The notes: generated by a model from the sequence alone, not told the origin. A stretch of 64,000 nucleotides of DNA from a virus (IMGVR_UViG_3300020414_000008:32001-96000); one strand, 5' to 3'; positions 1 through 64,000 are shown, numbered from the stretch's first letter. Numbers and translations: made by a program.

Positions 1-279
1 AAAGCTGAAAACTTTTTAGCAAAATATATACCAACAGCACAAGGACATCTTTCTATACATCATGATAGAGCAGATATTACTTGTTTGATACAATTATCGG
101 ACTTAAATGAGTATGAAGGTGGTGGTACTTGGTTCAGACGACAAAAGAAATTAATTAAGAATGATATCGGTTATGCAACCCTACATCCTGGCAACATAAC
201 TCACAAGCATGGGGCAAGAGCAGTGACAAAAGGGACACGTTATATAATAGTTTCGTTTATGGAAAATGGGGAAAGGTAA
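1..279 (+). CDS. C-terminal part of a 2OG-Fe(II) dioxygenase, procollagen lysyl-hydroxylase (PLOD)-like; starts upstream of the window
   Basis: Frame 1 is open from base 1: NFLAKYIPTAQGHLSIHHD...YEGGGTWF...LHPGNITHKHGARAVTKGTRYIIVSF, with HxD...H and R-x-x-x-x-S. It closely resembles the PLOD catalytic domain. Confidence 0.8.
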   Translation, partial: KAENFLAKYIPTAQGHLSIHHDRADITCLIQLSDLNEYEGGGTWFRRQKKLIKNDIGYATLHPGNITHKHGARAVTKGTRYIIVSFMENGER

Positions 280-288
280 GTTTGTCCA

Positions 289-296
289 TATTTATA
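289..296 (+). promoter_or_regulatory. Putative late promoter TATTTATA
   Basis: Recurrent intergenic motif upstream of structural genes. Confidence 0.6.
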
Positions 297-315
297 TACA
301 TAAAGGGGATTTAAA

Positions 316-1479
316 ATGGCAGTAAATATACCAATATGGCCTGGTTCAGGTTCGTTTTCAAGTGGTTCTTCTACTCCTTTCGGATACTTTGATGGTGATA
401 CAACATTTCAAAGTGACGCACCGAAAGTAGCAGAATGGTGTGCTAAAAGATTAGGATATCCAATCGTAGATGTCGAATTACAAGATATAAACTTTTTCGC
501 GTGTTTAGAAGAAGCAGCAAATGAATATTCTTCACAAGTAAATCAATATAGAGCTAAAGAAAACTTACTATCTTTAAAAGGTAATTCATTAGATTTAGAT
601 TTAAAAGATACTGAAATCGCTACTAACTTAGGTGGAGTAGTAAATATTGCAAAAGATTATGGTACTGAAGCGGGAAGTGGTGGTAGAGTAACTGTATATA
701 CAGGTTCCTTTGAAATGGTTGGTGGTCAACAAATATATGACTTAGGTGATGATAATGTTGTTAACTTAGAAAGTGGTTCAGTATCAAACGGGATTACACT
801 AAGAAAAGTATTCCATACACAACCACCAGCAATAATAAGATATTTTGACCCGTTTGTAGGAACAGGTCTTGGTTCTCAACAAATGTTAAATACATTTGGA
901 TGGGGAGCGTATTCGCCAGGTGTATCGTTTATGATGCAACCGATGTTCGATGACTTGTTAAGATTACAGGCGATTGAATTTAATGATTACATAAGAAAAT
1001 CATCATTTGGATTTCATGTAGATGGACAAAGAGTAAAATTATTCCCTGTTCCTGCAACAGGTGACGCAGGTGCAAAAGTATATTTTAATTATACATTAGA
1101 AAGTGAAACAAAATCACCGATTGCAAATTCAAATGTTGTAAGTGATTTATCAAACGCACCATTTGGAAGATTAACATATACAAATATTAATAGTGCGGGT
1201 AAACAGTGGATTGCAAGATATTCATTAGCATTAGCAAAAGAAATGTTAGGAGCAATCAGGTCTAAGTTCAGTAACATTCCAATTCCTGGCTCTGAAATAA
1301 CACTTGACGGTGGTGATTTACGAAGTGAAGCAGCAGCGGAAAGAGAAACACTAATCACTGAATTAAAAGAAATGTTAGAAGCAACTTCACGAAGAGCATT
1401 AATGGAAGCGAAAAAAGAAGAATCTGAATTCTTAGAGGAAACTTTAAACAGAGTTCCAAGACCAATTTTTATAGGATAA
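316..1479 (+). CDS. Neck/head-tail adaptor protein (T4 gp13-like)
   Basis: RLGYPIVDVEL motif; WIARYSLALAKEMLGAIRSKF...TLDG; first gene of the neck-tail block. Confidence 0.75.
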   Translation: MAVNIPIWPGSGSFSSGSSTPFGYFDGDTTFQSDAPKVAEWCAKRLGYPIVDVELQDINFFACLEEAANEYSSQVNQYRAKENLLSLKGNSLDLDLKDTEIATNLGGVVNIAKDYGTEAGSGGRVTVYTGSFEMVGGQQIYDLGDDNVVNLESGSVSNGITLRKVFHTQPPAIIRYFDPFVGTGLGSQQMLNTFGWGAYSPGVSFMMQPMFDDLLRLQAIEFNDYIRKSSFGFHVDGQRVKLFPVPATGDAGAKVYFNYTLESETKSPIANSNVVSDLSNAPFGRLTYTNINSAGKQWIARYSLALAKEMLGAIRSKFSNIPIPGSEITLDGGDLRSEAAAERETLITELKEMLEATSRRALMEAKKEESEFLEETLNRVPRPIFIG

Positions 1480-1482
1480 CAA

Positions 1483-2010
1483 ATGGCATTGTTTGGTGGA
1501 CAAAGAGATATGGACTTGTTCAATAAGGTGAACAAGGAACTTATTACCGATATCGTAGATACGGAAGTGTACTATTATATGTTAGTAGTAACTGATACAA
1601 AAGCGAACTTATACGGTGAAGGGAAAAATAAAGTATTTCACAATCCAATAAAAGTACCCGCGTTAGTAGAAAGAAATCAAGCATCACAAATATCTGATGA
1701 CTTTGGTCAATCATATAGTCGTGAGGTTCAATTTAGATTTCTAAGACAGCAGTTAGTTGATAGAGAGTTGGTACCCGAAGTTGGTGATATTATACAATGG
1801 AATAATGAATATCATTTAATAGACGCAGCATATTCATATCAGTATTTTGCAGGAAAGAATCCTAAATATTGGGATGGTGGTGATACTCAAGGTTTAAATG
1901 TATCTATTATATGTGATACTCACGTTTCAAGACAAACAAGTATTAAATTAGCAGAAACAAGATTTGGTAATTCAAATCAAAATGATAACGAAGTACCAAT
2001 AGGACTATAA
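1483..2010 (+). CDS. Neck/head-closure protein (gp14-like)
   Basis: Synteny; LYGE and PEVGDII motifs. Confidence 0.6.
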   Translation: MALFGGQRDMDLFNKVNKELITDIVDTEVYYYMLVVTDTKANLYGEGKNKVFHNPIKVPALVERNQASQISDDFGQSYSREVQFRFLRQQLVDRELVPEVGDIIQWNNEYHLIDAAYSYQYFAGKNPKYWDGGDTQGLNVSIICDTHVSRQTSIKLAETRFGNSNQNDNEVPIGL

Positions 2011-2011
2011 G

Positions 2012-62043: not shown

Positions 62044-62053
62044 GGAGTAACAG

Positions 62054-62386
62054 ATGGAAGAACAGGAAAATGTATTAGGTGAAAAGTCTAAGGTACAATT
62101 AGACATTAAAGCATTGATAGGGATGGTATTAGGTATCATCTCTATCGCAGGTGTTTGGTTTAGTTTAACAGCAGAGATTTCTCAATTACAATTAGATGTA
62201 ATTAGAATGCAAGATGATGTTGAATTAAATCACGAGTTCAGAGTAAAGTGGCCACGAGGTGAGATGGGTGCATTACCTGATGACGCAAAACAAGACCTTA
62301 GAATCGAATACTTACAAAAAGAAGTAGACGAACTAAGAAAAACAGTAAAAGAATTAGAAATCGAGAATGCTAAAATGGGTAAATGA
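62054..62386 (+). CDS. Single-TM coiled-coil protein
   Basis: Paralog of 59965..60252. Confidence 0.7.
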   Translation: MEEQENVLGEKSKVQLDIKALIGMVLGIISIAGVWFSLTAEISQLQLDVIRMQDDVELNHEFRVKWPRGEMGALPDDAKQDLRIEYLQKEVDELRKTVKELEIENAKMGK

Positions 62387-62553
62387 TGAGAAAGAAAATG
62401 ATAGCATTATCGTTAAGTTCAATACTAATGTTTGGTTGTGGTGTGACTAAACCAATGTCACCCGTAACAGAACAAGAACATCATGAAAATGTATTAAATG
62501 GTGTTTTATTTGGATTGATAACTTACGCGATATTTAGTAGTATAAAATTATGA
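62383..62553 (+). CDS. 56-aa lipoprotein with a C-terminal TM helix (not in the ORF track)
   Basis: MMRKKMIALSLSSILMFGC...VLNGVLFGLITYAIFSSIKL; ATGA overlaps at both ends. Confidence 0.65.
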   Translation: MMRKKMIALSLSSILMFGCGVTKPMSPVTEQEHHENVLNGVLFGLITYAIFSSIKL

Positions 62554-62930
62554 TAAAATTAAAAGAAATATTGAACGAAGGAAAGAAATCACTAAATGAG
62601 ATGGTACACTTTTATGGAAAAGCAAAAGTTGTACTTCAATCAAATGCAAAAGATGCCAAATTACCATCTCAACAAGTTGAGTTTAGATTTAATTATTCAA
62701 AACCTGATTTCTTAGGTAAAGGTCCAACTTTAACCTGTATTCCTGCAAGTTCAAAAGATTTAGATAAGATTGATACTTTAGGTAGTATATCAAAAGATGA
62801 TATTTGTAAACAATTAGCAGAGTTCGCATCGAAGAAAACAAAACAAACATTTGTTCCCATTGAATACAGACATCTTGACCAATATGCAATTGCGCTAGAT
62901 ATAGAACCTATTTTAAAGAAAATCAAATAA
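62550..62930 (+). CDS. Hypothetical protein with an MIKLKEILNE leader, probably head-internal
   Basis: ILNE and SLNE sites near the N-terminus. Confidence 0.65.
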   Translation: MIKLKEILNEGKKSLNEMVHFYGKAKVVLQSNAKDAKLPSQQVEFRFNYSKPDFLGKGPTLTCIPASSKDLDKIDTLGSISKDDICKQLAEFASKKTKQTFVPIEYRHLDQYAIALDIEPILKKIK

Positions 62931-62953
62931 TCAATAAAAAGGAAAGAGGAGAT

Positions 62954-63316
62954 ATGTTTAAGGATAAAGAGTTAAGAGGATATATAGGAGCAGCCACAGT
63001 ATTCATACTTGTGATGGGACTTTTATTGTTTTTAGCATTTTTTGAGATACCTGAAACTAATAACGATATATTCAAAGTAATTGTCGGTATGTTAGTTGGT
63101 TCATTATCAGTTGTTATCTACACTTTTATAGGTAAGAATCCTGAAGAGGTAGAAGCGTTAAAAGCGAAGAATGAAGCGTTGGAAGACAAAGTATCTGCAA
63201 TGGTTGTCGAAAAAGACAAGTTAGAGAAACTATTGAGAGACATTCAAACTGAAGTTATAGATAAGTTATCTATTACAGGTGAGAAGTTTAAGTTTCAAAA
63301 CACAACTAAAAAATAA
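62954..63316 (+). CDS. Two-TM plus coiled-coil membrane protein
   Basis: Two hydrophobic helices, then heptads; GAGGAG RBS. Confidence 0.7.
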   Translation: MFKDKELRGYIGAATVFILVMGLLLFLAFFEIPETNNDIFKVIVGMLVGSLSVVIYTFIGKNPEEVEALKAKNEALEDKVSAMVVEKDKLEKLLRDIQTEVIDKLSITGEKFKFQNTTKK

Positions 63317-63319
63317 AAA

Positions 63320-64000
63320 ATGAGTGACAGAGTAGCAAGAAAAAAAGGACAACATAGAGGGTCATCCTCTCATTCAGATTTGTATACGGATGAAAATCCA
63401 AAAGGTACAATTCATGGATTAAAGTTTGCTACTCAAAAAGACGCAGCGGCCTCTGTAAATAAAATAAGGTCAAGTGGTAAAAGTCACGCACATAAAATAC
63501 AAGCTGCTATCGCAATGGAACAAAGAGCGAAAGCAGCTGGTAAAGTGTCAGCAGCAGGTGAATATAGAAAATTCATAAATATGATGAAAAAGAAGACTAA
63601 AAAAATGAACGAGAACATAGTATTACCTATAAAGGTTGGGGATACGATTTTGACAGGTAGGTTCAAAAACAAAAGAACTACCGTTAAATCAATCGGTAAG
63701 GACGATTATGGTATGCCAACAATCAATGGTAGGAAAGTAGTCAACTTTAGAATCGTAAAAGAATCTGTAGAAGTAGAGTTCCCTGAAGATATGCCACAAG
63801 ATGAATCAATAAATGAACAAAGACCAATACCTATGGACACTCCAAATGAGTTCGTATACATGGATTTCAAAAAATGGGTGTACAAGAACAGGAAAAAGGT
63901 CAAGAACATGATGTTGAAACAAAAAGGTGATTCGACTAAAATGTTTTTAATATTATCAGCGTTGTGGTATAAATGGGCAACAAAAAGTGCACCAAACTTT
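63320..64000 (+). CDS. Modular basic protein running off the window end (not in the ORF track)
   Basis: MSDRVARKKGQH...SDLYTDENPKGTI...KKMNE/NIVLPIKVGD...IVKE/...SINE/...; frame open to 64000. Confidence 0.75.
   Translation, partial: MSDRVARKKGQHRGSSSHSDLYTDENPKGTIHGLKFATQKDAAASVNKIRSSGKSHAHKIQAAIAMEQRAKAAGKVSAAGEYRKFINMMKKKTKKMNENIVLPIKVGDTILTGRFKNKRTTVKSIGKDDYGMPTINGRKVVNFRIVKESVEVEFPEDMPQDESINEQRPIPMDTPNEFVYMDFKKWVYKNRKKVKNMMLKQKGDSTKMFLILSALWYKWATKSAPNF

Follow-up and report, generated by a model that had tools for sequence, protein, structure and literature searches.

The marine virus represented by the 180,769-bp IMG/VR record IMGVR_UViG_3300020414_000008 (estimated 94% complete) keeps tetranucleotides of the self-complementary class CYRG (CCAG, CTGG, CCGG and CTAG) almost only where they overlap or abut a GpC dinucleotide. 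We analysed this footprint in a 64,000-nt stretch comprising bases 32001–96000 of the record (the window, with coordinates counted from its first base) and found that it spans the whole 180.8-kb genome. The same genome has lost GpC from synonymous codon positions, writes GpC beside those CYRG sites that its proteins make unavoidable, and shares the GpC-dependent sparing of short words with its relatives. These features are probably explained by a clade-wide GpC-directed DNA modification that shields sites with their outer C in GpC, all other sites having been purged. The idea of a GpC shield, first suggested by the distribution of CYRG, is strengthened here by independent comparative and codon evidence.

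CYRG sites persist almost only next to GpC

Exact counting in the window returned 34 CCAG, 17 CTGG, 5 CCGG and 2 CTAG, 58 sites in total. These numbers are identical to the by-eye tallies of the original prediction, and all the coordinates listed there check out. A GC was overlapped or abutted by 57 of the 58 sites, as had been claimed, and the sole exception has its GC one base away (Table 1). Over the whole genome we counted 209 CYRG sites, of which 175 had one overlapping GC (GCYRG or CYRGC), 29 abutted a GC, 1 was separated from it by a one-base gap, and 4 had none. Two whole-genome nulls were used for comparison, with synonymous codons shuffled within each gene (null 1) or shuffled with additional weighting by codon-junction dinucleotides (null 2). 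Null 1 predicted 1063 ± 22 CYRG in place of the 209 observed. Sites without GC numbered 5 compared to 839 ± 21 expected under null 1 and 989 under null 2, sites with one overlapping GC stayed at expectation (175 compared to 196 ± 11 and 189, respectively), and sites with an abutting GC numbered 29 compared to 20 under null 1. The observation is thereby confirmed, and chance cannot account for this genome-wide contrast between shielded and unshielded sites. GC overlapped 172 of 202 CYRG (85%) but only 826 of 4306 other CNNG words (19%; odds ratio 24, p = 1e-85). CCAG and CTGG were symmetric and both strands were hit alike, indicating that the signal acts on double-stranded DNA rather than on RNA. 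The depletion held on both strands against codon-aware and Markov nulls, a pattern that identifies restriction-site avoidance. An apparent ban on GC at both sides of a site (0 observed, 7.8 expected) was discarded as a separate rule, because it reflects the general scarcity of non-Ala GC; GCNNGC is low for all CNNG words.

All 4 bare CYRG sites lie in the final 1.7 kb of the contig. The contig end (genome 178155–180769, ~2.6 kb, outside the window) is 94% identical to another lineage of ~178 kb that shows no purge and has unshielded sites, GATC and TTATAA. It repeats the gene order of the contig start (DUF6734 gene, small ORFs, terminase), and the contig start, to which it is homologous, matches that lineage at only 84% identity. 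The contig end is either chimeric by assembly or recently recombined, and because every bare site falls within this segment, the exceptions reinforce the GC rule.

Codon choice writes GpC at unavoidable sites and loses it elsewhere

Every possible spelling of the Pro-Gly dipeptide (CCN-GGN) includes a CYRG. Among 92 Pro-Gly pairs encoded genome-wide, 56 are preceded by a codon ending in G and another 35 spell glycine GGC, so that 91 of the 92 carry a rescuing GC, in line with the earlier proposal that synonymous codons bend to obey the rule. GGC is otherwise rare (64 of 4661 Gly codons), and 35 of these 64 occur in Pro-Gly. The dipeptide itself is found at approximately half the frequency expected from the Pro and Gly composition. 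At three conserved Pro-Gly positions the preceding codon ends in G in this genome and in A or T in relatives, and the unshielded CCAG/CTGG sites of relatives are missing at the homologous positions here. The same mechanics, a G-ending codon before Pro or GGC after it, explain the GCCWGG count: CCWGG is near expectation overall (95 observed, 114 expected), but 93 of the 95 copies are GCCWGG or CCWGGC, compared to 20 expected. The GCCTGG/CCAGGC class, in which GC abuts the CYRG, is enriched approximately 3-fold (29 observed, 9.4 expected).

Apart from these sites, GC was purged from synonymous positions, a result that is new here. The depletion reached about 20–30-fold wherever synonymous choice permits, except beside CYRG: TGC was used 6 times and TGT 378 times, AGC 20 times and AGT 1064 times, and CGC 4 times, with an NAC/NAY fraction of 0.37 for comparison. 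The observed/expected ratios at codon junctions were 0.27 for G|C, 1.51 for G|T and 1.19 for A|C. Alanine codons provide 2851 of the genome's 3299 GC dinucleotides. A CYRG is touched by 46 of 92 NGC codons and by 70 of 230 junction GCs, and the remaining junction GCs are mostly forced (ATG|C, TGG|C), which argues that silent GC persists mainly where it is unavoidable or shields a site. Alanine was spelled GCA in 75%, GCT in 11% and GCC in 3% of cases, with T/C-ending codons making up ~41% for Thr, Pro and Val. TGCA was found at 0.62 and RGCY at ~0.5 of the null; other GC-containing words may be partially avoided too. An excess of GGAGC was considered as an altered Shine-Dalgarno sequence and rejected, as it corresponds to Gly-Ala written GGA-GCA, a spelling that avoids TGCA.

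GpC-dependent sparing extends across the phage clade

The comparison set consisted of 80 loci linked to the family-B DNA polymerase (PolB), 33 loci carrying the 207-aa methyltransferase listed in Table 1, five near-complete relatives (G001–G005), and the whole genome of Microcystis phage Mel-JY01, the closest cultured relative by PolB (49% identity). The full CCAG/CTGG purge was limited to this species; in the loci with 97–99% identical PolB, 8/8 and 11/11 sites were shielded. Different words were spared beside GC in other members of the clade. G001 contained 34 CTAG (31 GC-overlapped, 357 expected), 33 CCGG (31 GC-overlapped, 85 expected) and 496 CCAG (40% GC-overlapped, 839 expected). CTAG was similarly reduced in G003 (64 observed, 61 GC-overlapped, 328 expected) and G005 (78 observed, 76 GC-overlapped, 373 expected). 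In 39 non-redundant relatives pooled together, 385 CTAG were present compared to 1632 expected, and 68% of them were GC-overlapped compared to a background of 31.7% (p = 6e-47). Many relatives also showed partial CCAG depletion with rescue. CATG was absent from G005 (0 observed, 572 expected) and reduced in the more distant G004 (PolB 59%), where 139 copies remained out of 701 expected and 116 of these (83%) were GC-overlapped as GCATG/CATGC. Background GC overlap in G001, G003, G004 and G005 was 0.19–0.32. GC-flank rescue of CATG thus differs between lineages, which may reflect GCA versus GCY specificity of the modification or different nucleases. The loss of GpC accompanied the sparing, with TGC/TGY at 0.03–0.07 in the five whole relatives and a TGC+AGC fraction of 0.01–0.17 in the PolB loci.

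Because relatives purge different subsets of words, CYRG is the union of separately evolving targets, which is also new here. The original prediction had left open a single CYRG specificity or separate recognition of its members; the single class did not survive the comparison, and the separate targets did, as CTAG, CCGG and CCAG/CTGG are purged independently. The rescue, on the other hand, recurred for different words in different relatives, placing it in the phage clade rather than in any one nuclease. Mel-JY01 showed neither part of the GpC pattern: GC was not avoided (0.27 compared to 0.24), NGC codon usage was normal, and CTAG (0 observed, 157 expected) and CCAG (158 observed, 485 expected, 3-fold down) were depleted without rescue, the 28% GC overlap of CCAG being equal to background. 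This phage also purges GATC, TTATAA, RCATGY, CCATGG and GCCGGC, and encodes a C5-cytosine methyltransferase (C5-MTase) in its replisome operon beside S-adenosylmethionine (SAM) synthetase (PP395634.1 80521–81189). S-CRM01 had no purge and no enrichment. The common rescue of other words in relatives, its absence from Mel-JY01 and the clade-wide, CpG-like decay of GpC all speak for the GpC-specific shielding proposed earlier.

Other purged words and a predicted phage nuclease

Several words outside CYRG were purged as well. GATC was missing from the whole genome (about 450–690 expected) and from Mel-JY01, and nearly all of the 80 PolB relatives had few or no copies (0–9 per locus). Genome-wide, GGAGG/CCTCC occurred once (99–170 expected), TTATAA once (89 expected), and ACATGT not at all. 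None of these four showed GC rescue; for GATC and TTATAA, no overlap with a GC is possible.

A gene for a 155-aa PvuII-family endonuclease (genome 116763–117230, outside the window; L007:4763–5230; Pfam 27.5 bits) was found in this genome and in four related records (among loci L051–L054 and L058), and TTATAA was purged in all of them (1 compared to 89 expected in this genome, and 0 compared to 14–24 expected in the loci). Four near-complete relatives without the gene had TTATAA at expectation. The protein is probably a phage-encoded nuclease predicted to cut TTATAA, a site that the phage avoids in its own DNA with no methyltransferase. The perfect co-occurrence of gene and purge indicates that self-avoidance of a phage nuclease occurs in this clade.

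A proposed GpC shield and the evidence against it

The sequences themselves demonstrate the footprint, its codon mechanics, its spread over the clade and the independence of the target words; from these patterns we infer the modification itself, the base that carries it, its chemistry and the ownership of the nucleases. The phage and its marine T4-like clade would carry a covalent mark at GpC steps, most likely on cytosine and, in this species, possibly at GCY only. The mark would be added after replication by an enzyme beyond homology recognition, and would block nucleases with tetranucleotide sites starting with a C in GpC on either strand. The nucleases met by this species would be those recognizing CCAG/CTGG, CCGG and CTAG, in addition to GATC, GGAGG, TTATAA and ACATGT. 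Unshielded sites would be lost through synonymous substitution. Pro-Gly would be saved by writing a new GpC, with GGC as the Gly codon or a G-ending codon before, because no synonymous change can free CCN-GGN from CYRG. A modified GpC may be hypermutable or costly, in which case it would decay at synonymous positions, as CpG does, unless selection holds it beside a site. A more specific version remains tentative, and we would not be surprised to see it fail: an enzyme unrelated to the known C5, N4 or TET families may install the GpC mark of the clade, the coding sequence may have co-evolved with it for complete protection, and sequence alone may report both the motif and the restriction specificities (CTAG; CCGG; CCAG/CTGG; CATG).

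A number of findings weigh against a GpC-directed modification. Searches for an enzyme that could write the mark were negative. C5-MTase (PF00145) was not found in this 94%-complete genome or in five near-complete relatives, by a search that detected the Mel-JY01 enzyme, and precomputed Pfam tables covering roughly 0.7–156 kb of the 181 kb contained no PF00145. The TET/JBP dioxygenase family (PF12851) had no match in the genome, with the control genomes silent too. The C5-MTase/TET pathway invoked by the original prediction has accordingly found no homologue here. N4/N6-MTases (PF01555) and DpdA/TGT (PF01702) had no match in the genome, the latter with a control positive in 14/14 genomes; Mom had none, with a silent control, and TET-associated glycosyltransferase (TAGT) and DruA searches of this genome were likewise negative. 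The sole thymidylate-synthase homologue is canonical (E = 7.5e-71), which rejects it as a deoxycytidylate (dCMP) hydroxymethylase. Scans of the genome for DPPY, PCQ and SAM motif I returned nothing convincing, the one NPPF match being sulfotransferase-like, and searches of PHROG, Atlas and PDB sequences with the unknown ORFs gave no matches. None of the 57 genes common to four GC-avoiding relatives and absent in Mel-JY01 is a recognizable DNA-modifying enzyme, and the two candidates in the replisome operon of this phage, a methyltransferase and a glycosyltransferase considered below, do not co-vary with the trait. The sequence pattern raises difficulties of its own. The depletion of GpC (roughly 30-fold) is stronger than classical CpG decay, GGAGGC is not rescued, and neither this genome nor G005 spares CATG beside GC. 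An abutting GC rescues GCCWGG only, an observation new to this work: GCCCAG/CTGGGC (1 observed, 6.3 expected) and GCCTAG/CTAGGC (0 observed, 4.7 expected) were not spared. Protection would thus reach one base further only 3′ of CCAG, and the bulky group earlier suggested from the protection of adjacent sites fits just the GCCTGG/CCAGGC class.

Formally, the overlap rule amounts to a degenerate 6-bp motif, and with all enzyme searches negative it could be attributed to the intrinsic specificity of the nuclease or nucleases, which would recognize H-CYRG-D on unmodified DNA so that GC-flanked words are not sites. However, GCCTGG/CCAGGC fits that motif and is nonetheless tolerated and 3-fold enriched, Mel-JY01 purges CTAG and CCAG without any flank rule, one such rule would be needed for separate CTAG, CCGG, CCAG and CATG activities on different phages, and the genome-wide avoidance of GpC would be left unexplained. 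We therefore regard intrinsic specificity as very unlikely. A mark written on the replicating phage DNA by a host methyltransferase would account for the lack of a known-family DNA methyltransferase in the phage and five relatives and for the spread of the trait over a clade whose members may infect a common group of hosts. Fixing the rare GGC codon implies near-complete modification, seldom reached by host enzymes on a lytic T4-like genome, and the replisome operons of the clade are rich in modification genes; a host origin of the mark is accordingly quite unlikely. The converse arrangement is also conceivable, in which most C except that in GpC is modified, Type IV nucleases (MspJI/SgeI-like, mCNNG) cut fully modified CYRG, and a GC flank spares the site by leaving one strand unmodified. 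Such a scheme would give a role to the many glycosyltransferases, sugar-nucleotide genes and 2-oxoglutarate (2OG) oxygenases of the genome and would dispense with a context-specific methyltransferase, which was not found. Under it, GpC should mutate less than any other context, although it is the most depleted one; no thymidylate-synthase homologue other than the canonical one is available to modify dCMP, and the purge of GATC, TTATAA and GGAGG has the classical form of restriction avoidance. We consider this scheme very improbable.

Two further explanations concern the cause of the purge. The threat could come from the phage's own nuclease, directed against host DNA, a possibility compatible with GpC shielding and illustrated by the PvuII-family gene, which is present where TTATAA is totally purged and absent from the four relatives with TTATAA at expectation. 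The species-specific nature of the full CCAG purge points the same way. We still judge self-avoidance an unlikely source of the CYRG purge, as no second sequence-specific nuclease was recognized among 22 species-unique genes and many relatives have lost CCAG in part while sparing it beside GC. Very-short-patch (VSP) repair in E. coli affects CTAG, CCAG and CTGG, and the loss of GpC looks mutational; a pure mutational or repair bias (VSP-like or context-specific deamination), with no selection against cleavage, might then be envisaged. But VSP repair raises CCAG/CTGG rather than depleting them, a depletion above 99%, with GATC at zero, typically points to selection, and Pro-Gly could be rescued only if GC was positively selected there while being lost elsewhere, which makes bias alone extremely improbable. 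A GpC-directed mark combined with selection against unshielded sites remains the explanation that we favour.

Relation to known systems

The closest published parallel to the proposed mark is the C5-MT/TET (5mYOX)/GT hypermodification of phages, which is post-replicative and specific to GpC cytosines (PMC8256090; bioRxiv 10.1101/2023.12.21.572611). The phage C5-MTases prefer GpC[C/T], and some skip GpCA (Burke et al. 2021, PMC8256090). In this genome the C of a G+CYRG is always in GCY, matching that preference, and skipping of GpCA would be consistent with the unrescued CATG; glycosyltransferases occur in the same neighbourhoods in those systems, and the predicted GT-B protein is a candidate counterpart here. 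The present genome differs in that PF00145 and PF12851 were not found, the PF12851 control being silent. Whether a GpC-limited mark can protect a genome has been questioned on the grounds that restriction sites mostly contain no GpC (bioRxiv 10.1101/2023.12.21.572611). In contrast to those systems, for which whole-genome protection is in question, the sequence of this genome has been reshaped so that a GpC-limited mark would suffice. It shows how the protection gap can close, by purging unshielded sites, writing GpC beside unavoidable Pro-Gly, and tolerating the decay of GpC elsewhere. Single-molecule real-time (SMRT) metaepigenomics has detected N4-methylcytosine (m4C) at RGCY, CCWGG and GGWCC in marine Myoviridae-like viral genomes (PMC8919816). 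Those viruses resemble this one in being marine and myovirus-like and in the G-C-Y context. Unlike RGCY methylation, the rescue needs no purine 5′ of the G (T 59, C 49, A 49, G 18), a distribution that rules out RGCY-specific methylation here, and no N4-MTase family member was found in the genome.

Restriction-site avoidance, exemplified by the GATC-free Staphylococcus phage K, similarly depletes short palindromes through synonymous codons, as seen here for GATC (0), TTATAA (1) and GGAGG (1). The avoidance in this genome differs in being conditional: sites stay at expectation when they overlap the presumed modification motif, which is itself purged elsewhere. Overlapping Dam/Dcm methylation blocks restriction sites in the same way, for example XbaI at GATCTAGA, the site being protected only if a neighbouring base completes the methylase motif. 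In the laboratory that effect is a nuisance, but this genome appears to have turned it into an evolved strategy, applied throughout its length and fixing rare codons. Vertebrate CpG loss by deamination of 5-methylcytosine offers a parallel to the loss of GpC in that silent copies are lost, transition products are in excess, and coding-forced copies are kept; here, however, the dinucleotide is GpC, the loss is about 20–30-fold, and the surviving silent copies largely shield a site. Global cytosine replacement of the T-even type is not matched, as dCMP hydroxymethylase/hydroxylase was not found in the genome.

If the proposed shield is real, an undiscovered GpC-modifying enzyme would exist in an abundant clade of ocean phages, and DNA modification would shape codon and even dipeptide usage (Pro-Gly). 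Modification motifs and nuclease specificities could then be read from sequence for thousands of uncultured viral genomes.

Candidate modification genes and genomic setting

The window contains several genes that may act on DNA (Table 1).

Table 1 Features in the window, with window coordinates.
Feature	Coordinates	Strand	Basis or remark
Compositional footprint: CYRG only with overlapping GpC or as GCCWGG; GpC stripped from synonymous positions; GATC absent	1..64000	none	
GCCTGG class example, xxG CCT GGx (Pro-Gly); GC abuts CTGG	339..344	+	sequence
CCAGGC example, CCA GGC; Pro-Gly rescued by the near-unused Gly codon GGC	3274..3279	+	sequence
Methyltransf_24 protein, 273 aa, upstream of gp32	20357..21178	+	matches PHROG labelled 'DNA methyltransferase'
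GT2 glycosyltransferase, UDP-galactopyranose mutase and 185-aa 2OG-Fe(II) oxygenase, directly upstream of PolB	28748..31477	+	possible DNA-modification genes; patchy among relatives
Class-I SAM methyltransferase, 207 aa, PolB-to-clamp interval, C-terminal ..NKFFSFD	34259..34882	+	predicted fold
GT-B-fold glycosyltransferase, 496 aa, clamp-to-clamp-loader interval, C-terminal ..NKFF	35636..37126	+	predicted fold
Nmad1/DUF1599-like protein, end of replisome operon	38735..39145	+	weak match, 23.5 bits; in all relatives including Mel-JY01
Sugar-nucleotide/glycosyltransferase cluster, 15 kb	41435..56676	+	candidate substrates: DNA, virion or host envelope
Sole CYRG without overlapping or abutting GC: GCC-CTGG, GC one base off	60749..60752	+	exact count

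The 207-aa methyltransferase was rejected as the GpC modifier, since its predicted fold is of a generic small-molecule/HEN1-like type and the gene is missing from the relatives with 97–99% identical PolB, which carry the full footprint, and from every one of the 80 PolB loci. Its distribution indicates a mobile or fast-evolving gene. PDB structural matches of the modelled GT-B protein include the glycosyltransferase of phage HY126, at TM scores of about 0.45–0.58. The GT-B slot is occupied in relatives by DruA-like or TAGT (PF20691) genes, and the protein was dismissed as a clade-wide cause because the 86–87% relatives have the DruA-like gene instead, yet avoid GC and rescue CTAG. The Methyltransf_24 protein is absent from three near-complete GC-avoiding relatives and is thus not a clade-wide modifier. 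It is only 61–67% identical in the 97–99% PolB relatives, and its gene is either mobile or fast-evolving.

The slots flanking PolB and the clamp gene in relatives (L058:8445–9972, L058:13255–14445, L069:13276–14529 and L069:8788–9969) are variable and hold DNA-modification-type genes, among them two Mom-like genes, DruA-like genes, TAGT (PF20691) and a P-loop+GNAT protein, which marks the replisome operon as a hot spot for such genes. The 15-kb cluster consists of two GT4 and four GT2 glycosyltransferases, UDP-Glc dehydrogenase, two epimerases, a CMP-sugar synthase fusion, a 2OG oxygenase and a Maf-like protein; the phage encodes at least four generic 2OG-Fe(II) oxygenases (PF13640).

The phage is a marine T4-like myovirus of ~181 kb with nearly all genes on one strand. 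Its T4-like gene set includes the tail sheath, PolB, gp32, UvsX, gp41, gp44/62, clamp, ribonucleotide reductase, Gp23 capsid protein and a T4-type portal. A megablast search with 20 kb of the genome found no match among cultured phages; identical proteins are held by many marine assemblies, Tara Oceans among them. Unusual auxiliary genes encode GroES/GroEL, ribosomal protein bS21, ClpP and ClpS (genome 106064–109301, 8.4–9.3 kb and 139.2 kb, outside the window).

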